The notes: a model not told the origin generated them from the sequence alone. Shown: positions 136 to 16,342, counted from the first letter of the stretch. The stretch is DNA of 64,000 nt from Armatimonadota bacterium (GCA_039811685.1 JBDHZC010000005.1:72057-136056); one strand, 5' to 3'. Program-made: numbers and translations.

Positions 136-1128
136 ATGTTTCGACAGTTGATCTGGTTTGTCACAGCAGCGCTCCCTTTGCTCGCACTTGTGCTCGCCGC
201 GGCCGCGTGCGGTGCAAGCGATATTCCGGTCGCTGTGCCCGCCCCCGGAGAGCCGCCTGTTCTGTTCGCTGCCGAGTCAGCAGGTGTGCTCTACACGGCA
301 ACTCTGGAGGCGGACAAGCGCGTTGCGGTCATCGCCGCCCTGCCGCTTGATCGAGTTGCGGAAAAACGGACTTACACAGTGCCGGTACCCGCTCTCGAAT
401 ACGAAAGTTTCCAGCGGCTCCGCTGGAGACTGGGCAGCGGATACGCGTGGCTGCTGCCAACGGTGCTGACGAATGGTGGCTTACGCCGCTACCCGATGTA
501 TCGCATTCCGCGCAGCGAACTCGACAAACTCCTCCACGGCAGTAACGAAGCCAGCGGAAGCGGCTTGAAAGACATGTGGTTTCCGCCGGGCTTTGCGCCA
601 CTCACACGCGCGGACGATGAATCCGGGGTGAAAGGGCAGCCGATCTACGGAGACTTCTACCCTATCTCTACATCAGCTATCCGGCAGTTCATTTTGCAGG
701 GCAGCGTACTGAGCGTCTGGGACTACATCGGAAACCCAGACGCCAAGCGGCCTGGGGGAAGTGACAGAGACCTCACTCCCGTGGCTGACCGAGAGCGGTA
801 CTTCAACTGGGTCCGCGTGGTGAAGCTGAAGGCGCCTTTTACGGAGTCCTTCCACGCGTTTCCTCAGAAGGGCGGGTTCCTGCTGGTTACGGACTCCGGC
901 GCGCTCTACTCCATCACGGGCATCAGCACCGGTACTCCAGCGATACGCAGGGTGGATCTGGGCGACGAGCAGATCAGGGTTATCGTGCAGACGGAGGGTG
1001 GATCGGCCATTGCGGCGACGCAGACGAAGCGCCTCGATCTGTCCTCGGCGCCGAAGCTGTCGCCGCTTTCGCATCCGCACAGCTCACCGACGGCTGCGGC
1101 CCTTGAGCTGGCCAAAGCGCTGAAGTAG
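136..1128 (+). CDS. Secreted protein/putative lipoprotein, P-family paralog (330 aa)
   Basis: ATG with upstream GAGGA. N-terminal hydrophobic signal with LAAAAC lipobox-like motif. Near-identical copy at 4964..5956. C-terminus …LELAKALK is shared with 3400..4482 and 7300..8325. Confidence 0.6.
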   Translation: MFRQLIWFVTAALPLLALVLAAAACGASDIPVAVPAPGEPPVLFAAESAGVLYTATLEADKRVAVIAALPLDRVAEKRTYTVPVPALEYESFQRLRWRLGSGYAWLLPTVLTNGGLRRYPMYRIPRSELDKLLHGSNEASGSGLKDMWFPPGFAPLTRADDESGVKGQPIYGDFYPISTSAIRQFILQGSVLSVWDYIGNPDAKRPGGSDRDLTPVADRERYFNWVRVVKLKAPFTESFHAFPQKGGFLLVTDSGALYSITGISTGTPAIRRVDLGDEQIRVIVQTEGGSAIAATQTKRLDLSSAPKLSPLSHPHSSPTAAALELAKALK

Positions 1129-1181
1129 TAGCGGGGTCGGCCGCGCTCAGTGAAGGAAGTCAGCCATCGCGGAGTCAAAGA

Positions 1182-1358
1182 ATGGAGAAACAAGTAGCTC
1201 AGGCGCAGCAAACCGTTCTGACTCTTGAAGCTGCGACAGCTACCTGCGCCGATTGGAAGCAGTGGTGGGCCGAGAACCAGAGCCAGTTTCAGTCCGGCAC
1301 CAGGAGCAAAGCTGAAGCTGCGGCCTTCGAACCAGCCGAACCCGCAACGGAGCAGTAG
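1182..1358 (+). CDS. W-module small protein (58 aa, MEKQVAQAQQTVLTLEAATATCADWKQWWAENQSQF…)
   Basis: ATG 1182 preceded by a conserved GAAGGAAG-containing leader. Homologous to the ORF at 8379..8555 and to the C-terminal ~50 aa of the HEAT protein at 6209..7165. Ends at the TAG that begins E copy 1. Confidence 0.45.
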   Translation: MEKQVAQAQQTVLTLEAATATCADWKQWWAENQSQFQSGTRSKAEAAAFEPAEPATEQ

Positions 1359-1461
1359 CGGAGGAACAGCGCTTCATCCGCGCAGGTGTCCTCACCTGCG
1401 CATAGAATTGGCGAATCTTTCACCCACTGGCTCCAGGTGGGGACATCTGGAGAGATGTAAA
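1356..1461 (+). repeat. E element copy 1 (~105 nt structured repeat: 5' arm agcggaggaacagcgcttcatcc, hairpin 1, spacer, hairpin 2, GGAGAG-ATG-TAA)
   Basis: One of six near-identical copies. Hairpin 1 is gcgcaggtg-tcct-cacctgcgc at 1380..1401. Hairpin 2 is ctccag-N10-ctggag at 1431..1452. ATG 1455-1457 is followed immediately by TAA. Confidence 0.8.
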
Positions 1462-1553
1462 TGGGGGCCCTTCTGCCAGACTGGGACGATGATGATCCCA
1501 ATCTGAACGGGGCGGAGAACGAGGACCTGGACCAGGTGACACGCGTCGAATGA
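1461..1553 (+). CDS. Acidic small peptide (30 aa, MGALLPDWDDDDPNLNGAENEDLDQVTRVE)
   Basis: Its ATG directly abuts the TAA of the E minimal uORF (ATGTAAATG). Its stop TGA 1551-1553 overlaps ATG 1550-1552 (ATGA). Coding status is uncertain. Confidence 0.3.
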   Translation: MGALLPDWDDDDPNLNGAENEDLDQVTRVE

Positions 1554-1561
1554 GGAGACCA

Positions 1562-3034
1562 ATGGTTTACAATGGAGTTATGGTCGTCGCCCGGCAGAAA
1601 GGCCCTGCCGGCCACTATGCAGCTGTCCTCGCGATAGCCGCATTCGTGTCCGCAGTGTGTGCTGCACAAGCGGCGTGCGAACTGCCAACTCACGGTTGGG
1701 AGTTCACAGTCGCAGCGGAGCACACGCCGGCTGTAGCGATCAGTAGAGACGGCTCGCGCATCGCCGTTTCCGACTGGGCGGCCATCTATCTACTTGACCG
1801 GCAGGGCAAGGTGCTGTGGACCGCGAAGGCGCCACCGAAGAGTGGCTTCGGAGTGACCGCCATCTCTGACACCGGCCATCGTGTGCTGTGCTGGAAGATT
1901 CGGCGCCTCCCAAGTGTGGACAACGAGGATATCGACTACAACGCGGTGCTCTTCAACGGCGCCAACGGGCAGGTGCTGACCGAGATCGAGCTGGACGGGG
2001 GCCGAGTGCCGACGGCGCTGTCTGGCGATGGACGGTATATTCTGGCGGGCTATCCGCCGGACGGCCTGGGCCTGGAAATGGCAGCACAGCCTGATCCCGC
2101 CAACTACCTCATGCTCTTAGATGACACCGGCAAGACCGTCTGGCGCTCAGACAAGCTTGCCCAAAAGCCCGTTGTCGGAGCGGCTTACGGCTTTTTATCC
2201 CACACCGGTTCCTATGCGCTGCTCGGCGCAAAAGACCGCCTGAACCTTGTGACCATCGGCGGCTATCACCTTTTCGACATTGCACTGACGTCAGACCCTG
2301 CCGTTTCCGCCGACGCTGACTTGATCATGATGGGCGCCACACCCGTGTTGTCCACAGACGTTCAGAAGTATGAGACCGCATGGCCTGTTGTCGCGCCACA
2401 GGGTGAGCAAGAGCCGCAGACATGGGGCCATGAGTCCTTTGGCTTCAAGACGTACACTGCAGCCGCGGCGCTCGCCTTGGTCCGCGTCGGGGATGTGGCC
2501 GAGGAGTCGCCTCCCCCGAACCGGCGGCATCCCTTTGCGGAGCTGGTGTGGGCGCATGGCGAGATCTGGGCGGGAAACCGGGAACGAGTGCTGGATGCGC
2601 CGAAGCTTCCGCCCATTCCCGCCGGTAATCCTGGACGGCGCGGGGTTGCCTACGGATCGGCTGGGCTGCTGGCAATTGTCGACCACACGCTGTTGGCGGC
2701 AGAGCTTGGGCAGGAGCACGCGGTGAAGTTGCTACGCCTGCCAGGGCTGGGGATTGTGAAAAGGGTCGGCGTGTCCAGCAACGCTTCCCGCGCCTACACT
2801 CTCGTCGCCGTCCCCGCTGGGTCCGATCTAGTGGGACGCGGCCCCAGCACGGGTTCGGCGGCTTCCGCTCTTGTCTGCACCGTCTGGGACAGGTCTGCCA
2901 AACCTGTTGCAACAATGCCTCTTTCAGAGCAGGAGAGGCCCTTCGCGATAGCCTTCTCCCACGCAGGCGATCTCCTGATCCTAGCGTGGAAGGGTAAGGT
3001 GCAGGCGTTCGAGATCGGAGGCGTCGCCAGGTAA
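1562..3034 (+). CDS. Secreted beta-propeller-like (PQQ/WD40-like repeat) protein
   Basis: 494-aa ORF; ATG 1562 preceded by GAGGAG at good spacing (alternative ATG 1550). Hydrophobic N-terminus and repeated …DG..IAVSD/…LLD.QGKVLW-like strands. It occupies the same position as the P-family genes between E copies 1 and 2. Confidence 0.5.
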   Translation: MVYNGVMVVARQKGPAGHYAAVLAIAAFVSAVCAAQAACELPTHGWEFTVAAEHTPAVAISRDGSRIAVSDWAAIYLLDRQGKVLWTAKAPPKSGFGVTAISDTGHRVLCWKIRRLPSVDNEDIDYNAVLFNGANGQVLTEIELDGGRVPTALSGDGRYILAGYPPDGLGLEMAAQPDPANYLMLLDDTGKTVWRSDKLAQKPVVGAAYGFLSHTGSYALLGAKDRLNLVTIGGYHLFDIALTSDPAVSADADLIMMGATPVLSTDVQKYETAWPVVAPQGEQEPQTWGHESFGFKTYTAAAALALVRVGDVAEESPPPNRRHPFAELVWAHGEIWAGNRERVLDAPKLPPIPAGNPGRRGVAYGSAGLLAIVDHTLLAAELGQEHAVKLLRLPGLGIVKRVGVSSNASRAYTLVAVPAGSDLVGRGPSTGSAASALVCTVWDRSAKPVATMPLSEQERPFAIAFSHAGDLLILAWKGKVQAFEIGGVAR

Positions 3035-3237
3035 CCCGGGTCGAGAACCCAATGCAGTTGACTTACTACGCCGACTGGAACTCAGAGACCGTAGCGATGG
3101 CCGGACTGCTTGCCGGAGGGGACGGCCAGTGCGGCTCCGCCTCAGGCGCAGCACGACGGCCTGGAGGGCCCGGCCTAGCAGCAGATGGTCGCCTGTCTCA
3201 CGGATATGAAGACCGCGCTGGGGTGTCCCCAGGCTAT

Positions 3238-3328
3238 GCTTCATCCGCGCAGGTGTCCTCACCTGCGCATAGAATTGGCGAGTCCTTCGCCCACTGGCTC
3301 CAGATGGGGACACCTGGAGAGATGTAAA
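3238..3328 (+). repeat. E element copy 2 (5' arm degenerate)
   Basis: gcttcatccgcgcaggtgtcctcacctgcgcatagaattggcgagtccttcgcccactggctccagatggggacacctggagagatgtaaa, with ATG 3322-3324 and TAA 3325-3327. The upstream 200 nt look like a decayed W-module. Confidence 0.75.
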
Positions 3329-3399
3329 GCTCGACCTGATATCGAGTGACGTAGCCGGCAGGGAAGCCTCGTATCCATAGCGTTAGAAGGAGTCACTAG

Positions 3400-4482
3400 A
3401 TGAAGATCACCGCTGTTGCCAAAGCTCTTCTTGTCTGTTGGTTGGCGGTCGACGCCGTCAGCCCTGCCGTCGCCGAGAGCTATCTATTCAGTGAAGAGAC
3501 GAAGCACCCCCTGATCGTCCAGCGCCCGCTGACAGGCATACTGGTTGATGAGACTATGTACACTCTCTCGATCGCGCCAGAGTCGGGCTATGCGCCTGTA
3601 CTGACGGAGACGCCGATGACCGCGCTTGCCGCGCCTGTCAGCTACGCTCTCACCGCAGTAGCCGACGCCAGACGCCCGGCCTTTCCTGTTCACTGGTCGC
3701 TGCGTGGAGGTTTTGTTTGGACGTTGACTGAGTCCGATACGCCGCTGAGTGGCATAGTGCCGTTTTACTTCAGTCTTCAGCGGACTGCGCTGACTGGCCT
3801 GGAGCCGTGTGCCGCAGCCACCACGCATGTGGTCAAGCCCGGTACTGTTGCCGATGTGTGGCACGCTCATCTGGCTAAGTGGGAGCGTGTCGCTTTCACT
3901 GAGCCCGAGACGCTGAACGACGCGACGCGGGCCGCCCGGCCTCCCGAGGTACCCTATCCTCTTGCCGCTATCGTGGTGACGGGACCGGTGACCGTCCAGC
4001 TTTTCCAGTTGACCGCCCCACATATGATGGGATGGGAGTACCGTGGGCCGGAGAAGCCTCGGCGGTGGAAAGCCGCGTTTGGGCCGGGGATGGCGCCGAT
4101 CTCTCCCGAGAGTCAGCGGGGCGTGCCTCTCAAGGAGCGTACTCACTCCGGCGACTGGTGGCGCATAGGGATGTTCGACGTTCCCTTCAGCGAGGCCTAG
4201 GAAGTGGCCAAGGTCGAAGGTACCTACTACGCCGTGACACAGAGCGGAGAGGTTTTCTCTCTGGGCGACCTTACCGGGAAAGTAAAGAAGATCGACATAG
4301 GAGGCAGACGTGTGACGGCGATTCTGACGCTGGAGGAGAGCGGAAAGGTGTATCTTTGTTCGCATGAGGACTACGCGCCGCTGTCGGATTCGCCTGGATT
4401 CAAATCCATTCCTGGAGGACACCCAGACGTCACCAGATCGGCAACGCAGTGCCTGCTGGACCTGGCGAAGGCGTTGAACTAG
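3400..4482 (+). pseudogene. P-family paralog interrupted by a single in-frame TAG (3400..4200 plus 4204..4482 in the same frame)
   Basis: Signal peptide at N-terminus. The last ~90 aa (…GGRRVTAILTLEESGKVYLCSHEDYAPLSDSPGFKSIPGGHPDVTRSATQCLLDLAKALN) are near-identical to the C-terminus of 7300..8325. TAG at 4198-4200 is in frame and flanked by homologous sequence on both sides. Confidence 0.5.
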
Positions 4483-4538
4483 CGCAGGGACTGCCATCCG
4501 CACGCAGTGAAGGAAGGCAGCCATCGCGGAGTCAAAGA

Positions 4539-4716
4539 ATCGAGAAATGAGCGGCTCAGGCGCAGTAAAGCGATCTGAATCTGAAGGCCGCGGAAGCTGC
4601 CAGGTCCGATTGGGAGCAGTGGCGGGCAGAGGACCAGAGCCAGTTTCAGTCCGGCACCAAGATCAAAGCTGAGGCTGGCGCACCCTCGATGTCGCCCGGC
4701 CCCGCGGCTCAGCCGT
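4539..4716 (+). pseudogene. W-module small ORF, degenerate copy (start ATG to ATC, internal TAA)
   Basis: Aligns to 1182..1358 and 8379..8555. Start codon mutated (aatCgagaa), stop within 'cagtaaagc', and a diverged middle. The 3' end …WEQWRAEDQSQFQSGTKIKAEAGAPSMSPGPAAQP* is retained. Confidence 0.5.
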
Positions 4717-4818
4717 AGCGGAGGAACAGCGCTTCATCCGTGCAGATGAGCGCATCTGCGCATAGAATTGGCGAATCTTTCACCCACTGGCTCCAGGTGG
4801 GGACACTTGGAGAGATGT
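4716..4818 (+). repeat. E element copy 3
   Basis: Hairpin 1 gtgcagatg-agcg-catctgcgc is a compensatory variant. Hairpin 2 is ctccag…cttggag. ATG 4815-4817 is followed by TGA, which overlaps the ATG of the next ORF (ATGTGATG). Confidence 0.8.
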
Positions 4819-4819
4819 G

Positions 4820-4939
4820 ATGCAAGACGATGCGTTGAGCGGGTTCTTTAGGCCGGCGGGTCAGTCCGGCTACTACCTCTACAAGAAGCAGTCGCCCAGC
4901 GATGTGCGGCTGCAAGATACTGAAGTTCCGTACCCGTAG
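4820..4939 (+). CDS. Small peptide (39 aa, MQDDALSGFFRPAGQSGYYLYKKQSPSDVRLQDTEVPYP)
   Basis: ATG overlaps the stop of the E minimal uORF. Conserved in the duplicate at window start (1..111), with mostly conservative changes. Confidence 0.4.
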   Translation: MQDDALSGFFRPAGQSGYYLYKKQSPSDVRLQDTEVPYP

Positions 4940-4963
4940 CGCCTATCGGCGAAAGAGGATGAA

Positions 4964-5956
4964 ATGTTTCGACAGTTGATCTGGTTTGTCACAGCAGCGC
5001 TCCCTTTGCTCGCACTTGTGCTCGCCGCGGCCGCGTGCGGTGCAAGCGATATTCCGGTCGCTGTGCCCGCCCCCGGAGAGCCGCCTGTTCTGTTCGCTGC
5101 CGAGTCAGCAGGTGTGCTCTACACGGCAACTCTGGAGGCGGACAAGCGCGTTGCGGTCATCGCCGCCCTGCCGCTTGATCGAGTTGCGGAAAAACGGACT
5201 TACACAGTGCCGGTACCCGCTCTCGAATACGAAAGTTTCCAGCGGCTCCGCTGGAGACTGGGCAGCGGATACGCGTGGCTGCTGCCAACGGTGCTGACGA
5301 ATGGTGGCTTACGCCGCTACCCGATGTATCGCATTCCGCGCAGCGAACTCGACAAACTCCTCCACGGCAGTAACGAAGCCAGCGGAAGCGGCTTGAAAGA
5401 CATGTGGTTTCCGCCGGGCTTTGCGCCACTCACACGCGCGGACGATGAATCCGGGGTGAAAGGGCAGCCGATCTACGGAGACTTCTACCCTATCTCTACA
5501 TCAGCTATCCGGCAGTTCATTTTGCAGGGCAGCGTACTGAGCGTCTGGGACTACCGCGGAAACCCAGACGCCAAGCGGCCTGCGGAAAGTGACAGAGACC
5601 TCACTCCCGTGGCTGACCGAGAGCATTACTTCGACTGGGTCCGCGTGGTGAAGCTGGAGGCGCCTTTCACGGAGTCCTTCCACGCGTTTCCTCAGAAGGG
5701 CGGGTTCCTGCTGGTTACGGACTCCGGCGCGCTCTACTCCGTCGCGGGCATCAGCACCGGCACTCCAGCGATACGCAGGGTGGATCTGGGCGACGAGCAG
5801 ATCAGAGTTATCGTGCAGACGGAGGGTGGATCGGCCATTGCGGCGACGCAGACGAAGCGCCTCGAGCTGTCCTCGGCGCCGAAGCTGTCGCCGCTTTCGC
5901 ATCCGCACAGCTCACCGACGGCTGCGGCCCTCGATCTGGCCAAAGCGCTGAAGTAG
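4964..5956 (+). CDS. Secreted protein/putative lipoprotein, P-family paralog (330 aa); recent duplicate of 136..1128
   Basis: About 97% aa identity to 136..1128. The upstream 140 nt are also duplicated. Followed directly by TAGTAG and E copy 4; the W-module ORF is absent here. Confidence 0.6.
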   Translation: MFRQLIWFVTAALPLLALVLAAAACGASDIPVAVPAPGEPPVLFAAESAGVLYTATLEADKRVAVIAALPLDRVAEKRTYTVPVPALEYESFQRLRWRLGSGYAWLLPTVLTNGGLRRYPMYRIPRSELDKLLHGSNEASGSGLKDMWFPPGFAPLTRADDESGVKGQPIYGDFYPISTSAIRQFILQGSVLSVWDYRGNPDAKRPAESDRDLTPVADREHYFDWVRVVKLEAPFTESFHAFPQKGGFLLVTDSGALYSVAGISTGTPAIRRVDLGDEQIRVIVQTEGGSAIAATQTKRLELSSAPKLSPLSHPHSSPTAAALDLAKALK

Positions 5957-6062
5957 TAGCGGGGGAACAGCGCTTCATCCGCGCAGATGAGCTCATCTGC
6001 GCAAAGCATTGGCGAGTCCTTCACCCACTGGCTCCAGGTGGGGACACCTGGAGAGATGTAAA
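5957..6062 (+). repeat. E element copy 4
   Basis: Hairpin 1 is gcgcagatg-agct-catctgcgc. ATG 6056-6058 and TAA 6059-6061. Confidence 0.8.
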
Positions 6063-6071
6063 GCGACGTTC

Positions 6072-6212
6072 GTGGCGGCAATCAACCAGGAGAGGATCGC
6101 GGGTGATAAGGATTACGAGGAGCAGGCCTACGGCGCGGAGGCCGTGTGCGAAATGGACCTGCTGGAGGAGACGTGCGCGTACGTCACGCCGCCATGTGAG
6201 GCGTGTCCATGA
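6072..6212 (+). CDS. Acidic 4-Cys small peptide A (…DKDYEEQAYGAEAVCEMDLLEETCAYVTPPCEACP); start codon uncertain (GTG 6072?)
   Basis: Open frame from the E element to TGA 6210-6212, which overlaps ATG 6209 of the HEAT gene (ATGA). Homologous to peptide B at 8660..8782 with pattern C-x8-C-x6/7-C-x2-C. Confidence 0.4.
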   Translation: MAAINQERIAGDKDYEEQAYGAEAVCEMDLLEETCAYVTPPCEACP

Positions 6213-7165
6213 CCATGGTATGCAGTCCTAGAACGGAGGTCGTTTTGAAACTCTTTATTGTGCTACTGCTTGCTGCTGCTCTTTGTGTTACGGCAATATC
6301 CGAGGGTGCGTCGGCCGAGCGCACGTGTGCCGCCACCAGGTATTACCGCTCCACGGTTTCTGAGTTGGTCGGGCTGCTTTCGAGTGGGCTGTCTATCGAC
6401 CGGTTCGACGCGGCTCTCGAACTCGGGCGGCGAGGCGATGTGTCAGTGATCCCTGCAATGAAGGCTGCGCTTGGCGATCCGGAGCGTTTCGTGCGGATGC
6501 GGATAGCTGCTGCGCTGCTGGATCTCGGCGATCGAAGCGGCGTGGAGGTACTTCACGAAGTTGTTACGTCGGGTGAGCCCTACTGGAGTCTGGCAGCGGC
6601 GGAGGTGCTTGCCCATCACGGTGACACCTTTGGCCGTGATCTCATCAGGAAGGCTCACTCTTCGAGCAGTTGGGTCGCTCGCTCCTCAGCCTTAAGGGCC
6701 TCGGCCGACCTTCCGGAGGGGCCGCCCTACGACGCCGTGGCTGCCGGACTGGAGGACTCGCAGCAGATTGTCCGCTTGACCGCCCTGAGGGCTGCTCAAA
6801 TGTGCCATGACCCCCGGGTGAAGGATCTGGTCCGCAAGGCGTTGTCTTCTTCCGATACGCTTCTGAGGGCGCGCGCGGCCATCATAATTGCGGAGGAGGG
6901 GCAGCCCGCAGACATTCCGGCTCTGATAGCGCTGTTGACAGCTCCGGATGGGGTTACCCGTTCTGCCGTTCTCAGAGCACTGCAGTCGCTGACGGGGCGT
7001 GCTTCTCCGTCGAAAACCGTTCTGACTCTTAAGGCTGCGACAGCTATCCGCGCTGAGTGGGAGCAGTGGTGGGCCGAGAACCAGAGCCAGTTCCCGCCTG
7101 GTACCAAGATCAAAGCTGAGGCTGGCGCACCCTCGGTGTCGCCCGGACCCGCGGCTCAGCCGTAG
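6209..7165 (+). CDS. Secreted HEAT-repeat (PBS-lyase/E-Z type) protein with C-terminal W-module
   Basis: Signal peptide (LKLFIVLLLAAALCV). Tandem repeats of the …LG(D)xxxxxxLxxxLxDxxxxVRxxAAxAL… type. The last ~50 aa (KTVLTLKAATAIRAEWEQWWAENQSQFPPGTKIKAEAGAPSVSPGPAAQP) match the free-standing W-module ORFs. GTG 6203 is an alternative start. Confidence 0.6.
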   Translation: MTMVCSPRTEVVLKLFIVLLLAAALCVTAISEGASAERTCAATRYYRSTVSELVGLLSSGLSIDRFDAALELGRRGDVSVIPAMKAALGDPERFVRMRIAAALLDLGDRSGVEVLHEVVTSGEPYWSLAAAEVLAHHGDTFGRDLIRKAHSSSSWVARSSALRASADLPEGPPYDAVAAGLEDSQQIVRLTALRAAQMCHDPRVKDLVRKALSSSDTLLRARAAIIIAEEGQPADIPALIALLTAPDGVTRSAVLRALQSLTGRASPSKTVLTLKAATAIRAEWEQWWAENQSQFPPGTKIKAEAGAPSVSPGPAAQP

Positions 7166-7267
7166 CGGAGGAACAGCGCTTCATCCGTGCAGAGGAGCGC
7201 ATCTGCGCATGGACTTGGCGAATCTTTCGCCCACTGGCTCCAGATGGGGACACCTGGAGAGATGTAA
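7163..7267 (+). repeat. E element copy 5
   Basis: Starts at the TAG of the HEAT gene. Hairpin 1 gtgcagagg-agcg-catctgcgc has one mismatch. ATG 7262-7264 and TAA 7265-7267. Confidence 0.8.
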
Positions 7268-7299
7268 GTCGCGAATACTGAGCGCAACTGAGATGCACA

Positions 7300-8325
7300 A
7301 TGAGAAGCAAAGGACACAGTAAAATGAGGGTACGGAAACGGCCTCTTCTTCTTCTCTTCGGAGTCCTACTTGTCACCACTCCACCAGCTGTCGGGCAGCC
7401 GTCTCCTGGTGTTCGCCTACGTCCTGGTCAAAGCCAACTGGTGCAGACTCCGCTGACGGCCTCTTCACGTGCGGGCGTTCTTTACACAGTGATCATTGAC
7501 AAAGGGCGTGCCTTGCTGCGGCAGACGCCTCTTGATACTTCATCGCCCGTTCGCTTCGCAAGTCTGGAGTCCTCCAGCCGTTTGACCGGTATCGGCCCGA
7601 TGTTTCCAGCGCATTGGGGACTTGCAGACGGCTTCCTTTGGTCGCTGGTTCTTGAAGAAGGAGACGCATACTGGGCCAGCCCACATCTAAGCCGCTTCGC
7701 GCTGGAGGACATGCGTCTCGTGGACCCGGACAACGCCCTTCCGCCTCGAGGCGCGCACCGCACAAGGCGCACAGAAGTCCCCCCGTATCCTCTCCTGGAT
7801 GCCATCGCGGAAGGGTCAAACCGTGACTTACTGGTCTTCCCCGCGCTTCAGCCCCTGTCGCGCAAATCCGTCCGCCTGTTCGTGCTGCAGCCGCCCGTGC
7901 TGACGGTATGGGTGAACGAAGACCCCGCGCTTTTCGCACCACGAACGTCCGGACGCAGCGTCGAAGGACGCGTGAAGGAAAAGGGCAGGATTGAGAACTG
8001 GTTGAAGGTTGCGTCTATCAGTGTTCCTTTCGCCGAGCCTTTCGAAGTTGTTGGGTGCGGTTCCGTCTGCTACTTCATCACAGGAAGCGGGGACCTCTAT
8101 GCAGATAAAGATCTGAAGGCAAGTCCGCAGAAGATCGACACAGGAGGCAGGCGCGTGACGGCGATTCTGACGCTGGAGGAGAGCGGAAAGGTGTATCTTT
8201 GTTCGCACGAGGACTACGCGCCGCTGTCGGATTCGCCTGGATTCAAATCCATTCCTGGAGGTCACCCAGGCGTCACCAGGTCGGCAACGCAGTGCCTGCT
8301 GGACCTGGCCAAAGCGCTGAAGTAG
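7300..8325 (+). CDS. Secreted protein, P-family paralog (341 aa)
   Basis: Basic N-terminus followed by a hydrophobic signal (RPLLLLFGVLLVTTPPAVG). Middle region recognisably homologous to 3400..4200. C-terminal 90 aa near-identical to 4204..4482, ending LLDLAKALK. Alternative start at 7324. Confidence 0.6.
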   Translation: MRSKGHSKMRVRKRPLLLLFGVLLVTTPPAVGQPSPGVRLRPGQSQLVQTPLTASSRAGVLYTVIIDKGRALLRQTPLDTSSPVRFASLESSSRLTGIGPMFPAHWGLADGFLWSLVLEEGDAYWASPHLSRFALEDMRLVDPDNALPPRGAHRTRRTEVPPYPLLDAIAEGSNRDLLVFPALQPLSRKSVRLFVLQPPVLTVWVNEDPALFAPRTSGRSVEGRVKEKGRIENWLKVASISVPFAEPFEVVGCGSVCYFITGSGDLYADKDLKASPQKIDTGGRRVTAILTLEESGKVYLCSHEDYAPLSDSPGFKSIPGGHPGVTRSATQCLLDLAKALK

Positions 8326-8378
8326 TAGCGGGGTCGGCCGCGCTCAGTGAAGGAAGTCAGCCATCGCGGAGTCAAAGC

Positions 8379-8555
8379 ATGGAGAAACGAGCGGCTCAGG
8401 CGCAGCAAACCGTTCTGACTCTTAAAGCTGCGACAGCTATCCGCTCCGATTGGGAGCAGTGGTGGGCCGAGAACCAGAGCCAGTTCCCGCCTGGCGCCAA
8501 GATCAAAGCTGAGGCCGCACCCCCGGCGTCGCCCGGACCCGCGGCTCAGCCGTAG
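8379..8555 (+). CDS. W-module small protein (58 aa, MEKRAAQAQQTVLTLKAATAIRSDWEQWWAENQSQFPPGAKIKAEAAPPASPGPAAQP)
   Basis: Same conserved leader (cagtgaaggaagtcagccatcgcggagtcaaag) and ATG context as 1182..1358. Ends at the TAG that starts E copy 6. Confidence 0.45.
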   Translation: MEKRAAQAQQTVLTLKAATAIRSDWEQWWAENQSQFPPGAKIKAEAAPPASPGPAAQP

Positions 8556-8659
8556 CGGTGGAACAGCGCTTCACCCGTGCAGAGGAGCGCATCTGCGCAT
8601 TGAATTGGCGCATCTTTCGCCCACTGGCTCCAGGTGGGGACATCTGGAGAGATGTAAAC
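8553..8659 (+). repeat. E element copy 6
   Basis: Hairpin 1 is gtgcagagg-agcg-catctgcgc. ATG 8652-8654 and TAA 8655-8657. Carries an internal TGA in the frame that is open in the other copies. Confidence 0.8.
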
Positions 8660-8782
8660 AAACAACGTGATGAAGAAGAAGCGTACTCCGAACAGGAGAT
8701 GTGCGAGAGGCTTACGTTGGACGACTGGTGTACATTTGGTATCCACGGGCCCTGCACGGCGTGCGATGATCTCAATGACTAG
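8660..8782 (+). CDS. Acidic 4-Cys small peptide B (…RDEEEAYSEQEMCERLTLDDWCTFGIHGPCTACDDLND); start codon unresolved
   Basis: Homolog of peptide A with the same Cys spacing and the conserved EE.AY…C.E motif. Ends at TAG 8780-8782, 20 nt upstream of the second HEAT gene. The only in-frame ATG is at 8699; the homology extends upstream of it. Confidence 0.35.
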   Translation, partial: KQRDEEEAYSEQEMCERLTLDDWCTFGIHGPCTACDDLND

Positions 8783-8801
8783 CAAGATGATGGAGGAAAG
8801 A

Positions 8802-9716
8802 ATGACGAAGATGGTAGCGCTGGTTCTAATCTGCGGGTGGTTCGGCTGGGGTGGTGTCTGTGCTGCGGGGCCGGCTACCCCTGTCACCGCCACAAATGGC
8901 TCAGCGACTCGTTCACCGGATTGTGACGAGGCGAGTGTCCCTGAATTGATTGCCATCCTTCGTGAGCGTGGAACCTTTGCTGTCCGTGCAGCACAGCTCC
9001 TTGCGGATCGCCACGCGACGTCTGCAATTCCGGATCTCGCGCTGTTGTTGACGGATCCGAAAATCTCTCTGCGGATAAATGCGGCGCGTGCAATGGCGCT
9101 CCTGGGAGACCGGAGCGGGTTACCAGTGCTGCGGGCGGCGCTGACAGAGGGTGACGATTTCCACGCCTCTATCGCGGCCGCTTTTCTGGCGCAGCTTGGC
9201 GACGACAGTGGGCGCGCGGTTTTGGAGAGGGAACTCAGTAGTCAAAACTGGATCGACCGGAGGCAGGCCCTGTACGCATTGGCGCTTCTTCCGGATGGTC
9301 TGTCTGATGTGGCTGTTGCAGCGGCTCTAGAGGACGAAAGGCCGGAGGTACAAAGAAGCGCGTTTCGTGTGGCCTGGAAAAATGCGTCTGATAGGGTGCG
9401 GGAGGTGTTGATTAAAAAGACACAGTCCCCGGATCCGCTTACCCGCTGGCGGGCGACTGAGGCCCTGTTTATGAGTAACCCGCACCGAAACGCAGAGATT
9501 GCTATTGGCATGATTACGGATCCGGACCGCCTCGTACAGGGACAAACATCCATGATGCTGGCGCATTTCTCCCGTGTGGCTGTGCCTCGGGTGAGCGGGT
9601 GGATGAGGAGTGCCGAGCGGGCAAGAGATCTCAAGCAGGCGTATCTGGAGTGGCTGGCGGTTAACAGGGACGTGGCGTTCCCGCCAACCGAGCCGGCGCC
9701 GCCTGCACCGCAATAG
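8802..9716 (+). CDS. Secreted HEAT-repeat (PBS-lyase type) protein with a diverged native W-like C-terminus
   Basis: GGAGG then ATG 8802. Signal peptide (MTKMVALVLICGWFGWGGVCAAG). HEAT repeats (…AARAMALLGDRSGLPVLRAAL…). C-terminal QAYLEWLAVNRDVAFPP resembles AIRAEWEQWWAENQSQFPP. An in-frame upstream ATG at 8667 would add a non-signal extension. Confidence 0.6.
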   Translation: MTKMVALVLICGWFGWGGVCAAGPATPVTATNGSATRSPDCDEASVPELIAILRERGTFAVRAAQLLADRHATSAIPDLALLLTDPKISLRINAARAMALLGDRSGLPVLRAALTEGDDFHASIAAAFLAQLGDDSGRAVLERELSSQNWIDRRQALYALALLPDGLSDVAVAAALEDERPEVQRSAFRVAWKNASDRVREVLIKKTQSPDPLTRWRATEALFMSNPHRNAEIAIGMITDPDRLVQGQTSMMLAHFSRVAVPRVSGWMRSAERARDLKQAYLEWLAVNRDVAFPPTEPAPPAPQ

Positions 9717-9765
9717 CAGCGGCTGCGAGCGGGCAAACGCTCATTCAGTCGGAGATACGCACGCA

Positions 9766-9797
9766 AAAGTAAGGGGGCAGCCGGTTGGCCGCCCCCA
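9766..9797. terminator. Putative bidirectional intrinsic terminator hairpin between convergent genes
   Basis: gggggcagccggttggccgccccc, a GC-rich imperfect stem-loop between the + gene ending at 9716 and the − gene ending at 9829. No strong U-tract. Confidence 0.3.
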
Positions 9798-9828
9798 ATT
9801 GCTTGAATCACGCTGTGGATGAGACGCT

Positions 9829-10719
9829 CTACACCCGCTTGCGGCGAACCACCCCTGCCAGTGATACCAGGCCGGCTCCCAGCGCGAGCAGGGAACCCGG
9901 CTCAGGCACCAGCGTCAGCGAGAAGTCATCAAAGTAGCCAGTCTGGCTTCCGAACTTTGAGTTCACTTCTATAACATTGTAGCCGTAGTTGAGCACGGAA
10001 TTATGAGTCAGCGTCGGATTCACCATGTCGTCAATGTAGAACCAGACGTCGTTTGTGCCGTCGCCGAGCGCAGGCCCAACCACGATGCGCGCCTGATGCC
10101 AACCAACGCTTCTGCTGGTGCTGGTGTTGAACCATCCGTTAGGGCCGCCGTAGCCGTCGCTGGACCCGACAACGCGAGCCTGATACTTGCTGGTATCCCC
10201 GGTGCTTTGCGCTCCCAGTGAAAGCCGCTGGATCTTGCTGGCGCCGGCGTTCAGGCTGCCCGATCCAGGATAGTCAGTGCCGGAAGGCGCCGTGTTGTAA
10301 TAGCCAAGAGCGACGTAGTCCTTGAAGTTGCCGTCACCCGCGCCACCGACGTCGTAGAACCACCAGTCGAGCGTCAGATTCCCGGTAAAGACGTTGCCGC
10401 CGTTGAAGCGATAGGCGATATTCAACCAGTTCTGGTCAATGTCTGCCCCGCCTACGAAGGCTCCGCGAAGCATGTGGTCACCACTGTGGGGCGTGACGCC
10501 GCTGTCGGTCGAAACTACCTGTCCGTTTGGCGGGTTGGGGCCGAACCAGGGGTTGCCGGACCCGTTTGGCGCCGAGTTCGCGCCACCGGGGGCATTCTTG
10601 TCGAGCGCGCCGATATTGGCGCCCTCAAATCCGTCTGTAAAGACGGGAGCCGCCTGCGCCGTGAAAGCTGTGGCCACAACCAAAAGTCCCACCGCGCAGA
10701 GGAGCATTCCTCTTTTCAT
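9829..10719 (-). CDS. PEP-CTERM sorting-domain secreted protein
   Basis: Start MKRGMLLCAVGLLVVATAFTAQA (signal peptide). C-terminal VPEPGSLLALGAGLVSLAGVVRRKRV is a PEP-CTERM motif plus TM helix plus basic tail. Confidence 0.65.
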   Translation of the reverse strand: MKRGMLLCAVGLLVVATAFTAQAAPVFTDGFEGANIGALDKNAPGGANSAPNGSGNPWFGPNPPNGQVVSTDSGVTPHSGDHMLRGAFVGGADIDQNWLNIAYRFNGGNVFTGNLTLDWWFYDVGGAGDGNFKDYVALGYYNTAPSGTDYPGSGSLNAGASKIQRLSLGAQSTGDTSKYQARVVGSSDGYGGPNGWFNTSTSRSVGWHQARIVVGPALGDGTNDVWFYIDDMVNPTLTHNSVLNYGYNVIEVNSKFGSQTGYFDDFSLTLVPEPGSLLALGAGLVSLAGVVRRKRV

Positions 10720-11129
10720 ACTTTCTCCTTCTGTCTGCCTGCAGTCAGCCGATCTTACGCCGGCTTGCACTCTAGCAGTACACAAACGTACTTAATTTAG
10801 AATATCACTGCGTACTTATAGAGTCAACTGGTAATTTGGTGTCAAAATCTCATCCTTTTTCCAGGTGAAGCGCAGAAAGCGCAGGATGCCTTTACTGTTG
10901 CGCGACCGGACCGGTGTCTGACGTATTTGCATTCGGATTGCGCTAAGGCCACCGCCCGTGGTATACTCCTGCGTCTGTGAAAGTCGTCACAGGCTTTGCA
11001 CTTACAGAGACGATGGCCACTTCTTGAGGGCAGAGCCAGCGCAACAGAGTTCCACAGACACATAGTTGAGGGTGGAATCAGAACCACGGCCGACTGTGGC
11101 AACTCCGCCTGCTGCTCGTAAATGCTCGC

Positions 11130-11762
11130 ATGAACCAACAGACCCAAAAGGTGCCGGTGCCGACTCTGGAGCGCATGGCAAGATATCTTGCCTGCCTGCT
11201 TGATCTCGACGCAAAAAGCGTTGAGACGATCTCTTCCGCGGACATGGAGCGCTATACGGACGTCAACGCCGCTCAATTCCGCAAAGATCTCTCGTACTTT
11301 GGCGAGTTTGGACGTCCCGGCATCGGCTACAGCGTGCCGGAGCTCACCCGCCGGATCAGCAAGATTCTAAAAGTGGACAGAGAGCAGCCGGTGCTACTGG
11401 TAGGAGCGGGCAATCTGGGGTCGGCGCTTGCGGGCTACCCGAGTCTCTCCCGGGAACACTTCAGAATCGCTGCGGTTTTCGACAACAATCCCGCCAAGAT
11501 CGGTCACAAACTCTGGGACGTAGATATTTACGACATTTCGAAGATTGCGGAGGTCAATGCGCGGAGCATAGACGCCAGACTCGCCATTATCGCAGTGCCA
11601 TCCGCAGCAGCTCAACAGGTGGCGGACGCAGTTGTGAAGTGCGGGGTCACCGCTATTCTCAATTTCGCTCCAGTGACACTGCGAGTTCCGCGTGAAGTGA
11701 CAGTGCGCAATGTAGATTTTGTGCAGGAGCTTGCCGTACTGTCGTTTCACCTGGCTCCCTGA
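11130..11762 (+). CDS. rex: Redox-sensing transcriptional repressor Rex
   Basis: Full-length similarity to Rex family: N-terminal wHTH (…RDLSYFGEFGRPGIGYSV…) and Rossmann NADH domain (LVGAGNLGSAL…ILNFAP). Confidence 0.85.
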   Translation: MNQQTQKVPVPTLERMARYLACLLDLDAKSVETISSADMERYTDVNAAQFRKDLSYFGEFGRPGIGYSVPELTRRISKILKVDREQPVLLVGAGNLGSALAGYPSLSREHFRIAAVFDNNPAKIGHKLWDVDIYDISKIAEVNARSIDARLAIIAVPSAAAQQVADAVVKCGVTAILNFAPVTLRVPREVTVRNVDFVQELAVLSFHLAP

Positions 11763-13277
11763 ATGGCGCGCGTCAGGGATATACGCACTGTCTCGGTGCG
11801 TACAAAAATCCTCGTGCCGGTTCTCTTCATTGTTGTCGCTGTCTTTGCCGCTATTCTCTACGGCGCCGCTCTGGTACTGGAAGCGCAGCGGCACGAATAC
11901 TCCCGAAGAATTGGTAGAAGAGTCTCCAGCGCTGTTGCTGGCGGGTTGCACTCCGCTCTGATGACTGGACGCAAAACCGAAGCACAGGAAGCCATCCGGG
12001 TTATGCTCTCCGAAGCGGACCTCCCTCCCAGTCAAATCGCTATTCGCAAGCTGGACGGCGCTTACTGGATTCGCGGCGGCGACAATACAATCCCGCCGCA
12101 TTCGTTTGCGCTGAAACCGTCTCTAAAGGAGAACTCCAGCCGAGAGTTCAGCGTTGGCGCTGCCCGTTTCATCAATACCACATCAGTTCTCCCGAATGAG
12201 CCTGAGTGTCAAAGCTGTCACAGCCCCGCCACCCGAGTGCTCGGCTATCTCGAAGTGGACCTTCCCGTGGTCTGGGTGCGCCAGCGCCACCAGGCGACTC
12301 TCACGGCTATCGCCGTTATTGCGGGGCTGACGCTTCTGCTGCTGGCTGTTGCAATCGTTTTGTCCGTCCAGATAGCGGTTGTTACGCCGATCAAGGGTCT
12401 GGCAAGCGCTATGACGGTGGTTAAGGGCGGGCATCGCGATGTTCAGGTGGAAGCCGGACCGGAAGACGAGATCGGCATGCTGAGCAGACGGTTCAACGAG
12501 ATGGTGGATGAAGTGGCTGAGGCGGAACACTCTCTTGTCGAAAAAGAGCACCAGCTTGCGCGGGCGGAGAAGCTGGCTGGGATTGGGCTGATGGCTGCGG
12601 GAATCGCCCACGAGATAAATAACCCGCTGACCGCTGTGTCGATGGCCGCGGAGAGTATCAATCTCCCCAACGCCACACAAGAGCAGCGGCAAAGGCTGAG
12701 CGCCTACATTCTGGAGGGTACGCGGCGAATCCAGGATATTGTGGCTGAGCTTCTGACGCTGGATCAGAAGCGAGCTTTGAATGTGACTGAGCAGGACGTT
12801 GCGGAGATCGTCCACGCCGCGCTGGCTGGCAGACAGATTCCCGGTAACATCACGGTGCACGCCAGTTTGGCTCCGGATCTTCCAAAAGTTCACGTGGACT
12901 GGGAACGAATTGTGAGGGCAATCGGCAACCTTGTGAAAAACGCTCTCCAGGCGATGCCTGACGGGGGAGAATTGACTTTGTCTGCAGAAGCTGGAAAAGG
13001 CGAGGTACTGATTGACATCAAGGATACAGGTGGAGGTATAGCCCCCGAACATCTCCACCGCATTTTTGATCCTTTTTTCAGCACGCGGGAGGTCGGAGAA
13101 GGCTTTGGACTGGGACTGGCTTTTGCGCACGCTGTGGTGAAGCAGCACGGGGGGGACATAACAGTCAGCAGCGAACCTGGCCGTGGAACGGCATTTACAA
13201 TCTCGTTGCCCGTTGAGCCGGGAGCGAACCCAGAGGAACCTGGTGATTCCAGGGACGTGTCAGAGATGGAGGAATAG
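11763..13277 (+). CDS. Sensor histidine kinase with periplasmic CxxCH heme-binding motif
   Basis: TM segment, periplasmic domain containing CQSCH, second TM, H-box (IAHEINNPLTAV), and HATPase_c G-boxes (DTGGGI…GLGLAF). Confidence 0.7.
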   Translation: MARVRDIRTVSVRTKILVPVLFIVVAVFAAILYGAALVLEAQRHEYSRRIGRRVSSAVAGGLHSALMTGRKTEAQEAIRVMLSEADLPPSQIAIRKLDGAYWIRGGDNTIPPHSFALKPSLKENSSREFSVGAARFINTTSVLPNEPECQSCHSPATRVLGYLEVDLPVVWVRQRHQATLTAIAVIAGLTLLLLAVAIVLSVQIAVVTPIKGLASAMTVVKGGHRDVQVEAGPEDEIGMLSRRFNEMVDEVAEAEHSLVEKEHQLARAEKLAGIGLMAAGIAHEINNPLTAVSMAAESINLPNATQEQRQRLSAYILEGTRRIQDIVAELLTLDQKRALNVTEQDVAEIVHAALAGRQIPGNITVHASLAPDLPKVHVDWERIVRAIGNLVKNALQAMPDGGELTLSAEAGKGEVLIDIKDTGGGIAPEHLHRIFDPFFSTREVGEGFGLGLAFAHAVVKQHGGDITVSSEPGRGTAFTISLPVEPGANPEEPGDSRDVSEMEE

Positions 13278-13284
13278 CAGGGAT

Positions 13285-13905
13285 ATGCCTAAGCGAGTCT
13301 GGACAGCAGAGCGTGTTGTCGAGGAAATACAGCAACTCGAGAAATCGGGCGTCGATCTGAGGCACGGTTCTGTCCAGGACGAGCACAAGAGGCTGGTAAG
13401 CGCGGCGATCCGTTACTTTGGAAGCTGGAGAGCGGCGGTTGAAGCCTCAGGGCTTGACTATGAAAAGCTGCGGCAGTCCTCTGAAGAGCAGCGCCTTCAG
13501 AAGATTGGAAAATGGTCGGAGGAGAGGATTCTTGCGGAAATCAAGGATCTGAAGGACAAAGGAGACGATCTGCGCGCTGTGATGGTCAAGAACAAGTACC
13601 CCGCGCTGTTCTCAGCGGCGGTCAGCCCCAGGTACTTTGGCAACTGGCGAAAAGCTCTGACAGCGGCGGGAGTGGACTACGATACAGTGCTGTCCCGGTC
13701 CCCGCGCGGGCGTCCAAAAAGGACCGACGTCTGGCACGCAGGGCTGATTCTGCAGAAAATCCGTGAGATGCATGCGAAGGGGCAGAGCCTGGAGTCCGAG
13801 GCGATATCTTCGCACTATCCCCGCCTTCTCCGGCTTGCGACAATGCGCTTTGGAAGCTGGCACTCTGCGGTGGATGAGGCCCTCTCAAAAGACAACTCCG
13901 CATAG
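13285..13905 (+). CDS. Hypothetical protein with three tandem ~45-aa repeats (R[YM]FGSW..A…G[LV]DY)
   Basis: ATG 13285 just after the kinase stop. Repeats RYFGSWRAAVEASGLDYEKL / RYFGNWRKALTAAGVDYDTV / MRFGSWHSAVDEAL resemble homing-endonuclease-associated repeats; this resemblance is from memory. Confidence 0.4.
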   Translation: MPKRVWTAERVVEEIQQLEKSGVDLRHGSVQDEHKRLVSAAIRYFGSWRAAVEASGLDYEKLRQSSEEQRLQKIGKWSEERILAEIKDLKDKGDDLRAVMVKNKYPALFSAAVSPRYFGNWRKALTAAGVDYDTVLSRSPRGRPKRTDVWHAGLILQKIREMHAKGQSLESEAISSHYPRLLRLATMRFGSWHSAVDEALSKDNSA

Positions 13906-13994
13906 TTGCGCTCTTTTCTTACGGGCTTCGATATGGCTGACGGCGCACACAGCGCGGTTGACGTTGCGCGTGCAAAGCTTTATTATACGGTCAC

Positions 13995-14774
13995 GTGAGC
14001 AGGGCGCTTTATATCTTCGACCTTGACGGCGTCATCTACCGCGGAGACACTCCTCAACCCCACGCAGCCGACTGTATCCGGCGATTGACGGCTGCCGGAC
14101 ACGCCATCTATTATCTGACCAACAACGCATCGCGAACGCGCGAGAGCTTCGCGCAGAAGTTGTCCGCAATGGATATTCCCACCGAACCTCGGCAGGTGAT
14201 GAACAGCTCGTACGGTACGGTCTTGTGGCTGCGAGAGTTTGGACAGGTGGCAAGTACTGTGATGGTTGTGGGGGAGCAAGGCTGTTTTGATGAGTTGAAC
14301 GCCGGAGGAATGCGGACTGTGACGCCAGGTGACGGGCATCAGCCAGACTACGTGGTAGTTGGCATTGACCGGAGCTTCACCTACCAGAAGCTCTGGCAGG
14401 CTCAGACGGCGATTCTGAACGGCGCTGTTTTCATCGCCACGAACCGGGACTCGACTTTCCCGTATGAAAGCGGCATCGCTCCGGGCGCTGGCTCGATTGT
14501 TGCGGCAGTCGCGGAGGCAGTGGGACGCCAACCGTTTACAATAGGCAAACCAGAAACATTTCTGCTGGATCAGGTTATCAAGGATTCGGGAATCGCGCGG
14601 GAGCGCGCTATCATGGTGGGAGACCGGCTGGATACAGACATTGCGGCTGGCAACAGGGCCGGGGTAAAGACTGTACTGGCGCTCGGCGGAGTGGCGAGCC
14701 GTGAAGATGCGGCTATCGCTGAAGAGGAAATGCGCCCGCAAGTCATCATTGACAATCTCTCGGAGCTTGAGTAG
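13995..14774 (+). CDS. HAD-superfamily hydrolase, subfamily IIA (NagD-like sugar-phosphatase)
   Basis: Motif I (FDLDGVIY), TNN, and C-terminal GDRLDTDI motifs. Confidence 0.7.
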   Translation: MSRALYIFDLDGVIYRGDTPQPHAADCIRRLTAAGHAIYYLTNNASRTRESFAQKLSAMDIPTEPRQVMNSSYGTVLWLREFGQVASTVMVVGEQGCFDELNAGGMRTVTPGDGHQPDYVVVGIDRSFTYQKLWQAQTAILNGAVFIATNRDSTFPYESGIAPGAGSIVAAVAEAVGRQPFTIGKPETFLLDQVIKDSGIARERAIMVGDRLDTDIAAGNRAGVKTVLALGGVASREDAAIAEEEMRPQVIIDNLSELE

Positions 14775-15461
14775 GTGTCAATTCTGGCAATCGGTGCGGC
14801 AGATTCATCTGGCTTGTCCGGGCTTTGGATGTATGCTCACAGCGCAGAGTGTGACTGCCGGATATTCCCTGTGACCGCGTGCGTGATCGCCAGGAGCAGA
14901 GATGGCCGCGTCAAAGCAGTATCCGCAACCCCGCCAACGATTATCGCGCGCCAGATTGATGCCGCTACTGAGATAGAGCATCCACAGGCCTGCATCGTCG
15001 GGATGCTGGCGCGGCATCAGGCGGTGCACAGGGTGGCGGAACGGATTCAGAGGCGAGAGATCTGCAACATTGTCCTGGCGCCGGTGTTAGGGCGCGAAGA
15101 CGGGCGCGATCTGATGACAGCGCAGGGGATCAAGCAGACCAGAAGGCAGCTTGTCCCGCTGGCTGATATCATCGTTGGTGATGCGCAGACACTTCAAAGC
15201 CTTGCCAACAGTGAACGGGGCGTTGCTGCCGCGGCACAGGCACTGAGAGATAACGGTGCGAAAAGCGTCATTGCGCTCTGGCAGCAGGCGGACAAGTTTG
15301 TCTGCCGCGTGTTTGCCGGGCAAACGGCGCAGTTCTCTCTGGGTCCGGGAAGCCAGATGGACCAGACGCTCATCGACAGGCTCGCTGTTGCTTCGGCGCT
15401 GAGTCTTACGGAGGGCAAGAGCCTCACGGAGCGCCTGAGTCAGTGGAGCGCCGGGTGTTAG
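14775..15461 (+). CDS. ThiD-like (hydroxymethylpyrimidine/pyridoxal kinase family) protein, short
   Basis: N-terminal ILAIGAADSSGLSGL resembles the ThiD glycine-rich motif. Shorter than canonical ThiD. Confidence 0.4.
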   Translation: MSILAIGAADSSGLSGLWMYAHSAECDCRIFPVTACVIARSRDGRVKAVSATPPTIIARQIDAATEIEHPQACIVGMLARHQAVHRVAERIQRREICNIVLAPVLGREDGRDLMTAQGIKQTRRQLVPLADIIVGDAQTLQSLANSERGVAAAAQALRDNGAKSVIALWQQADKFVCRVFAGQTAQFSLGPGSQMDQTLIDRLAVASALSLTEGKSLTERLSQWSAGC

Positions 15462-16296: not shown

Positions 16297-16342
16297 TGGC
16301 GTATGCAATCAAAGCGATGCACGCAGAAAGGCTTTCTGGTCT

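Follow-up and report, generated by a model that had tools for sequence, protein, structure and literature searches.

Does a run of paralogous secreted-protein genes that share their 3′ ends constitute a programmed system of recombinational variation, or has it been shaped by recombination of a general kind? The question is raised by a 64,000-nucleotide (nt) stretch of DNA (the window) from an Armatimonadota bacterium (GCA_039811685.1, contig JBDHZC010000005.1, positions 72057–136056). The Armatimonadota are an environmental phylum, and the source here is the metagenome-assembled genome (MAG) of an uncultured member. Positions 1–9.7 kb of the window hold an approximately 9-kb tandem cluster of seven co-oriented (+ strand) genes for secreted proteins: four encode members of one β-propeller family (termed P1 to P4), one encodes a further propeller-like protein and two encode proteins with HEAT repeats. 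A preliminary description likened the P genes, with a downstream module (W) and a hairpin-forming repeat (E), to the silent and expressed cassettes of pilE/pilS, vlsE and msp2. The analysis presented here leads to another view, namely that this is probably a lineage-specific tandem cluster which originated by segmental duplication and has been partly homogenized by interlocus gene conversion and unequal exchange.

The four P open reading frames (ORFs) are at positions 136–1128 (P1), 3400–4482 (P2), 4964–5956 (P3) and 7300–8325 (P4), all on the + strand, as had been described. The translated sequences can be aligned and have in common the motifs W..G..W, PF.E.F, T.SG.LY and LAKAL[KN], and all four do terminate in LAKAL(K/N). 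A hidden Markov model (HMM) of the family, when run against the 64-kb window, matches exactly these four genes. P1 encodes 330 amino acids (aa) and P4 encodes 341 aa (333 aa from an ATG at position 7324). Each P gene is full length, starts from an ATG of its own behind a Shine-Dalgarno-like sequence and encodes a signal peptide. The signal peptides were judged by eye, and by the same judgement a signal-peptide-like N-terminus is present on every protein of the cluster; the lipobox-like motif, LAAAAC, is found in the P1/P3 pair only. The P gene bodies had been described as strongly diverged and still homologous. This holds for P2 and P4 (43% nt identity) but not for P1 and P3, which are a duplicate of 97.7% identity, and therefore there are just three sequence types among the four P genes.

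A structure model predicts four-stranded antiparallel blades arranged around an axis, i.e. a five-bladed β-propeller, followed in P4 by a C-terminal helix. The helix motif, LxxAxxL, is kept in remote members of the family. The segment shared by P2 and P4 begins at residue 277 of P4, and in the model it coincides exactly with the final blade and the terminal helix.

It is in this segment that exchange between paralogs can be recognized. In a codon alignment, the nt identity of P2 and P4 is 43% in the leading 745 aligned nt and rises to 94.3% in the terminal 194 nt. The maximum chi-square statistic is 164, a value reached in 0 of 2000 permutations, and it places the breakpoint at positions 4286 (P2) and 8129 (P4), 194 nt before the stop codon. 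The similarity then runs on through the spacer, W and E (4286–4818 versus 8129–8655, both +, 88% identity), and about 340 nt of this is non-coding. On the P2 side the tract includes the last blade, the C-terminal helix, the spacer, a degenerate W copy (W2) and the E copy termed E3. The last ~270 nt of the two genes had been regarded as almost identical. The homogenized tail is present, but it is shorter (about 194–197 nt), and its synonymous sites are not nearly identical, with a synonymous divergence (dS) of 0.18.

The divergence of the tails also gives an indication of age. The nonsynonymous divergence (dN) is 0.021, dN/dS is 0.12 and the tails are 97% identical as protein; the gene bodies are saturated. 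The dS and dN/dS values show that the exchange did not take place very recently and that both tails were later under purifying selection. This in turn suggests that an in-frame TAG in P2 (positions 4198–4200) is recent. The other public assembly of this locus, described below, has P2 annotated as one ORF of 266 aa and another of 92 aa, and P2 is probably a recent pseudogene. A P relative from a different MAG (P0005, GCA_037135195.1) has 52% identity with the body of P4 but only 33% with that of P2. The P2 and P4 lineages are therefore old and predate the divergence of P0005, and tails that are 97% identical in such old lineages come from transfer and not from differential constraint. The P1/P3 tail is distinct, with ~40%–50% nt identity to P4 in the same alignment columns.

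The P4 tract at 8129–8655 is itself a mosaic of P2-, P1- and HEAT1-like segments. The nearest relative of its coding tail is P2 (94%), that of the stop codon, the spacer and the 5′ half of W is P1 (92%), and that of the 3′ half of W is the tail of the HEAT1 gene (94%). The breakpoint and the shift of nearest relative along the P4 flank bear out the earlier proposal that recombination between paralogs has yielded mosaic genes and flanks. A supported identity breakpoint, homogenized synonymous and non-coding sites and a shifting nearest relative are the signs by which interlocus conversion is recognized, and all three are found here.

W aligns with the last ~58 codons of HEAT1 (6203–7165, +), which encodes a secreted HEAT_2 repeat protein and contains the intact form of the module. 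To judge from this alignment, W is what remains of the 3′ end of a gene for a HEAT-repeat protein. W1 (1182–1358, +) and W4 (8379–8555, +) are 58-aa ORFs that retain an ATG, a new start in W1, with GGAG upstream; dN/dS between them is 0.53. W2 (about 4540–4713, +) is degenerate, the ATG having been lost and in-frame stops gained. The second HEAT gene, HEAT2 (8667–9716, +), is a paralog of HEAT1 and the last gene of the E-punctuated cluster; both products are HEAT_2 proteins, with 33% mutual identity. Thus the conserved W plus E reported to follow every P gene is confirmed for E; W is missing after P3 and decayed after P2.

P1 and P3 are parts of a 1136-nt duplicate (positions 1–1136 and 4829–5964, 97.7% identity). 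The 26 differences are unevenly placed: ten are at positions 6–93, none at 94–726 (633 nt) and sixteen at 727–1107. The coding sequence of P3 thus has 16 differences from P1, all in the last ~400 nt; they fall in blades 4–5 and give a dN/dS of ~0.9. P3 runs directly into the E copy E4, which abuts its stop codon, and the junction lies within a microhomology, GTAGCGG(G/A)GG (7–10 nt). Since this short sequence follows the P stop codon and also closes W, the loss of W from P3 bears the signature of a deletion. Two weak matches to the Rfam family naRNA4, in the P1 and P3 coding sequences (432–492 and 5260–5320, +), have 27 bits against a gathering threshold of 59.5 (E-value = 0.14) and are probably due to chance.

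A comparison with independently assembled sequences was also made. The end of contig JADLDK010000010.1 (GCA_020846715.1, “MAG: Armatimonadetes bacterium”), termed L002, equals window positions 1108–18325, with 7 mismatches in 17,218 nt. This 74-kb contig stops at window position 1108, in a repeat, the tail shared by P1 and P4. All seven differences are within positions 3033–6079 and none is found in the next 12 kb (chance about 5e-6). At positions 5010, 5170 and 5179, P3 of the window has the P1 base, while the other assembly and two Logan contigs have the alternative base; a P1-type Logan contig carries the window base at all three. At position 4377, P2 of the window carries the P4 base. Three Logan contigs from three runs represent three different P1/P3 mosaics, and one of these continues into a W4-type flank. 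Each sample provides a single k-mer contig of 1.1–1.3 kb, and the two copies share identical stretches far longer than k.

The simplest biological reading of these data is a P1-to-P3 conversion of 170–633 nt in the strain of the window. The evidence is suggestive only, as consensus polishing with mis-mapped reads could explain the assembly differences; and because the Logan contigs are single, short and repeat-spanning, collapse or path-switching by the assembler explains the mosaics equally well. Mosaicism within the population, for which the preliminary description proposed to look, is hinted at by three sites with P1-to-P3 polarity, in a form not separable from assembly artefact.

The organization of the cluster can be compared with that of known variation systems. 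Gene-conversion systems keep unexpressed copies, usually promoterless or truncated, that donate sequence into an expression site (PMC4534519). The silent pilS donors are without promoter, ribosome-binding site and 5′ coding region, and no P gene is of this type. The vls cassettes form a contiguous array beside the expression site, bounded by short direct repeats, and have neither promoters nor starts; the P genes stand apart from one another, are complete and have unrelated genes between them. In msp2/p44, conserved segments are present on both sides of the variable region; here only the 3′ end is shared, and only by P2 and P4. There is no conserved 5′ anchor among the P types, the 5′ and middle regions being ~43% identical in nt sequence. 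Given full-length copies, three sequence types, no 5′ anchor and the presence of E beside non-P genes, the pilE/pilS, vls or msp2 architecture does not apply, and the cassette organization first proposed lacks its defining features in this locus. The likeness to pilE/pilS, vlsE and the Anaplasma msp2/p44 genes (PMC4534519, PMC2632889, PMC3899283) lies in mosaics formed by transfer and in a conserved 3′ flank repeat (cf. Sma/Cla). The differences are that there are no silent truncated donors, no doubly bracketed variable segment and no guanine-quadruplex (G4) motif, and that the organism is not a known host-associated pathogen.

Sequence signals associated with programmed variation were searched for in the window. 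No G4 motif (G3+N1–7, four times) occurs on either strand of the whole window, and neither simple-sequence runs (≥7 nt) nor short tandem repeats (≥5 units) are present. Among the inverted repeats only the pair I3 is strong (95% complementary), and it is formed by hairpin arms of E3 and E4; seven other pairs of 16–30 nt are 71%–88% complementary and none of them brackets a promoter-like segment. Slipped-strand or invertible-promoter phase variation was thus rejected, there being no repeat tracts and no promoter-flanking inverted repeats. A promoter/terminator scan (sigma-70) was uninformative, with sites no commoner than in shuffled sequence. Recombinase, integrase, reverse transcriptase and transposase domains are absent from the scanned ORFs of at least 200 aa and from the precomputed Pfam hits, a negative that leaves several overlapping long ORFs and all ORFs of less than 200 aa outside the Pfam scan. 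The ORFs covered comprise genes for Rex and a histidine kinase, a cluster for polysaccharide synthesis and housekeeping genes. A tRNA scan of the window found no tRNA.

Other families offer closer parallels in part. Tandem full-length families such as those of Ehrlichia and Mycoplasma gallisepticum vary by other means, i.e. differential expression (PMC4534519). The Ehrlichia omp-1/p28 and M. gallisepticum vlhA genes (PMC4534519) resemble the P genes in being tandem full-length paralogs with their own translation signals; unlike them, the P genes have no repeat tract or switch signal upstream. In Borrelia hermsii, extragenic repeats, the upstream and downstream homology sequences (UHS/DHS), are associated with the vmp genes (PMC4534519), and E is similar in that it is an extragenic repeat found down- and upstream of each member that could delimit exchange. 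In B. hermsii, however, expression takes place at a single telomeric site, and the many archived genes, on linear plasmids, lack promoters (PMC4534519), whereas here complete genes of three types form a chromosomal cluster. The UHS/DHS arrangement would be the nearest analogy, in layout only.

The pattern agrees best with interlocus conversion in tandem paralogs, with which the cluster shares co-oriented neighbours, abrupt breakpoints, homogenized silent and non-coding sites, a shifting nearest relative and pseudogenes. The tuf genes and multigene surface-protein families are examples of such interlocus conversion and concerted evolution. Additional bacterial examples of conversion are the release-factor genes (PMC4530459) and hotspots in antigen families of Mycobacterium tuberculosis (PMC13061034). 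The present locus differs in that it is mainly the non-coding flank plus the last blade and helix that are homogenized, the bodies being saturated, and in that the shared flank includes the hairpin repeat E, which also punctuates non-homologous genes.

E is about 90–110 nt in length and has two separate 9-bp hairpins, with one compensatory pair among six copies. It is an intergenic structured repeat, and the copies, all on the + strand, are E1 (1351–1461, core ~1371–1461), E2 (3238–3328, with a truncated 5′ boundary), E3 (4711–4821), E4 (5952–6062), E5 (7158–7268) and E6 (8548–8658). An additional + strand copy, inferred from a third data set (L001), would lie upstream of position 1. A search with a 20-mer (≤3 mismatches) finds the six copies within 1–8.7 kb and none in the other 55 kb, with none expected by chance. 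The copies are 88%–93% identical, with sharp boundaries and immediate flanks that cannot be aligned. E is present between all genes of the cluster and precedes every one of them in an E-gene-E arrangement. It follows not only the P genes but also HEAT1 and a 494-aa gene (1550–3034, +) between E1 and E2, whose product is secreted, shows a weak likeness to PQQ_2/propeller proteins and falls outside the P family. A difference between the two assemblies, A/C at position 3033, lies in the stop codon of this 494-aa gene; the product annotated in the other assembly has 499 aa and both starts and ends elsewhere. Of the proposal that E serves as a recombination landmark, what is supported is that homology is kept in the 3′ flank (W plus E); E is not specific to P genes, as it also occurs at unrelated genes.

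No Rfam family matches E, either in the whole window at gathering thresholds or in 1–9.8 kb at E-values up to 1. E has no U-tract and shows, by eye, no terminal inverted repeats and no ECF-type (extracytoplasmic function) or sigma-70 promoter. The E 20-mer has one match in 185,579 representative genomes (Actinomadura), about the chance expectation, and no match in the Joint Genome Institute (JGI) metagenomes; the W plus E block has no match in plasmids or phages. All E copies end in GGAGAG-ATG-TAA (ATG-TGA in E3), i.e. a Shine-Dalgarno-like purine run followed by a start-stop mini-ORF (positions 1445–1461, 3312–3328, 4805–4821, 6046–6062, 7252–7268 and 8642–8658), and the sole substitution keeps the stop. 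A minus-strand ORF conserved across E (…SPDVPTWSQWVKDSP…) was rejected as a gene, since its start is not conserved and the parts upstream bear no relation to one another. E resembles the repetitive extragenic palindromic (REP) and bacterial interspersed mosaic elements (BIME) in being intergenic and hairpin-forming, with sharp boundaries, just past stop codons; it differs by its ~90–110 nt with two hairpins, by its confinement to the cluster and by its absence from the other genomes searched. A REP/BIME-like dispersed repeat was rejected on the distribution of E, which is limited to 1–8.7 kb with no copy in the remaining 55 kb of the window. As a working guess, the primary role of E may be at the RNA level, with the hairpins ending, processing or stabilizing transcripts between genes.

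These observations can be combined in the following scheme. The cluster would have grown by segmental duplication. E (~100 nt, at every junction) and W would then provide the longest shared homology, at which exchanges may nucleate and from which they would run variable distances into the neighbouring coding 3′ ends. Seeding in the flanks with variable reach would give the diverged bodies with homogenized tails. The exchange would be RecA-type general recombination and not a dedicated system, and any variation would be a by-product and not a programmed switch. The P2/W2 unit is decaying (the TAG in P2, the lost ATG and the stops in W2), as expected of birth-and-death turnover.

Several points weigh against this scheme. 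The exchange is read from assembled sequences. The negatives for a recombinase and for further copies cover the window, and the DNA upstream of position 1 could hold either. The 88%–93% identity of E and its sharp boundaries suggest a function of its own, and conversion alone may not explain them. Finally, the P1/P3 dN/dS of ~0.9 fits relaxed constraint and equally fits diversifying selection.

Among the other explanations, programmed recombinational variation would have the P genes as donor and acceptor cassettes and E and W as downstream homology elements (as DHS or Sma/Cla), and it would diversify a surface-exposed propeller, e.g. against phage or predators. We consider both the system and this purpose unlikely. 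Mosaic tails and flanks, E on both sides of each P gene and a pseudogene member (P2) that might be a donor are what such a system could leave behind, and assembly differences found only inside the cluster, some with conversion polarity, agree with it, as do three P1/P3 mosaics from three samples and the high P1/P3 dN/dS. Yet every P copy is complete and independently translatable, there are three sequence types only, and the tail dS of 0.18 indicates old and not continual exchange. Furthermore, no 5′ anchor is shared, E flanks non-P genes too, and G4 motifs, simple repeats, flanking inverted repeats and a recombinase (in the ORFs scanned) were not found in the window; the Logan mosaics are the pattern expected from collapsed or chimeric assembly of copies that are 97.7% identical. 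It is similarly doubtful that E-anchored segmental conversion is active and selected, reshuffling the outer blades of secreted or lipoprotein propellers together with their partner HEAT proteins in free-living Armatimonadota. That E would be a landmark at cassette boundaries, a non-pathogen analogue of UHS/DHS with the assembly differences as its footprint, is likewise improbable. A somewhat smaller chance is given to an assembly artefact, in which repeat collapse or chimeric joins would have made the duplicate P1 and the mosaic flanks. The contig of the other assembly breaks exactly at 1108, within the P1/P4 shared tail, and the differences between assemblies are only in repeats; but the P2/P4 tract, all E copies, W1, W2 and W4 are present in the independent contig L002 (99.96% identical), the P1-spacer-W junction is seen in L001, and the copies differ by 6%–57% and hence are not collapsed duplicates.

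Two further explanations appear very improbable. Strong purifying selection on the C-terminal blade and helix, with no recombination, would account for an LxxAxxL motif that is kept in remote members and for the tail dN/dS of 0.12, but it is already contradicted by the similarity of synonymous sites, spacer and W (dS 0.18 versus a saturated body), and the clearly different P1/P3 tail (~40%–50% nt identity to P4) and the abrupt, not graded, shift in identity also speak against it. With the same very small likelihood, the E-gene-E units would be integron-like mobile cassettes whose site-specific recombinase is encoded upstream of the window, since the upstream end of the array is outside the sequence examined and conserved ~100-nt hairpin repeats with sharp boundaries do separate co-oriented genes. 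E, however, has no attC cores (RYYYAAC/GTTRRRY) on either strand as read from its sequence, and it forms two separate hairpins and not one long imperfect palindrome. The putative cassettes are paralogous, and each carries translation signals of its own. The ORFs scanned in the window include no integrase, and E is absent from the representative genomes (185,579), JGI metagenomes, plasmids and phages. Segmental duplication with partial homogenization by conversion and unequal exchange thus remains the reading we prefer.

Neither Pfam nor NCBIfam has an entry that matches the P family. When 5.8 billion clusters were searched with a word index, the only matches were the genes of the organism itself and Logan contigs. 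A full HMMER scan of 1.84 billion representatives yielded 58 relatives at E ≤ 1e-3, mostly 300–400 aa in length, which carry the motifs W..G..W, PF.EPF and YFFVT.SG.LY. No further close P paralogs were found among 15 billion proteins. By these sequence comparisons the family is genuine, but rare and unannotated. A HEAT_2 gene is found at most two genes away from a P-like gene in the window and at two of the four remote-relative loci listed (L004; L006/L007), and in P0012, a remote member, the propeller contains an inserted HEAT-like helical segment. A functional, possibly conserved, partnership between propeller and HEAT proteins is suggested. At L004 (GCA_037135195.1, contig JBAXKU010000499.1, 1523–2893) and L006 (1045–6765), distant P genes are near secreted HEAT_2 genes.

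The remainder of the window is of a different character. Directly downstream of the cluster is a gene for a PEP-CTERM protein (9829–10785, −). Rex, histidine-kinase and HNH_repeat genes at 11–14 kb lie between the cluster and an exopolysaccharide-type locus at ~14–30 kb, an extended series of genes for glycosyltransferases, epimerases and methyltransferases. The 240-aa protein encoded at 13183–13902 (+) has two matches to HNH_repeat, a homing-endonuclease-associated repeat (E = 2e-15), with no nuclease domain detected in it. A DUF1559/N-terminal-methylation (pseudopilin-like) protein at 44024–44833 (−) and a PIN-TRAM domain protein at 56783–58030 (−) are unrelated to the P cluster.

The recombination signal in this cluster is real, tidy and of a known kind; the P family and the E repeat are new but uncharacterized. 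Read as ordinary gene conversion, the locus offers a clean small case, from a phylum that has received little study, in which concerted evolution is limited to the 3′ flank and the paralogs are otherwise saturated. Two elements are defined by it as well, a rare family of secreted proteins, predicted to be five-bladed propellers, whose genes are often beside those of secreted HEAT-repeat proteins, and a cluster-specific ~100-nt double-hairpin repeat. To our knowledge, nearly all established cases of recombinational surface variation come from host-associated pathogens. If the exchange in this cluster were ongoing, an environmental case would widen the range of organisms in which recombinational surface variation is sought.

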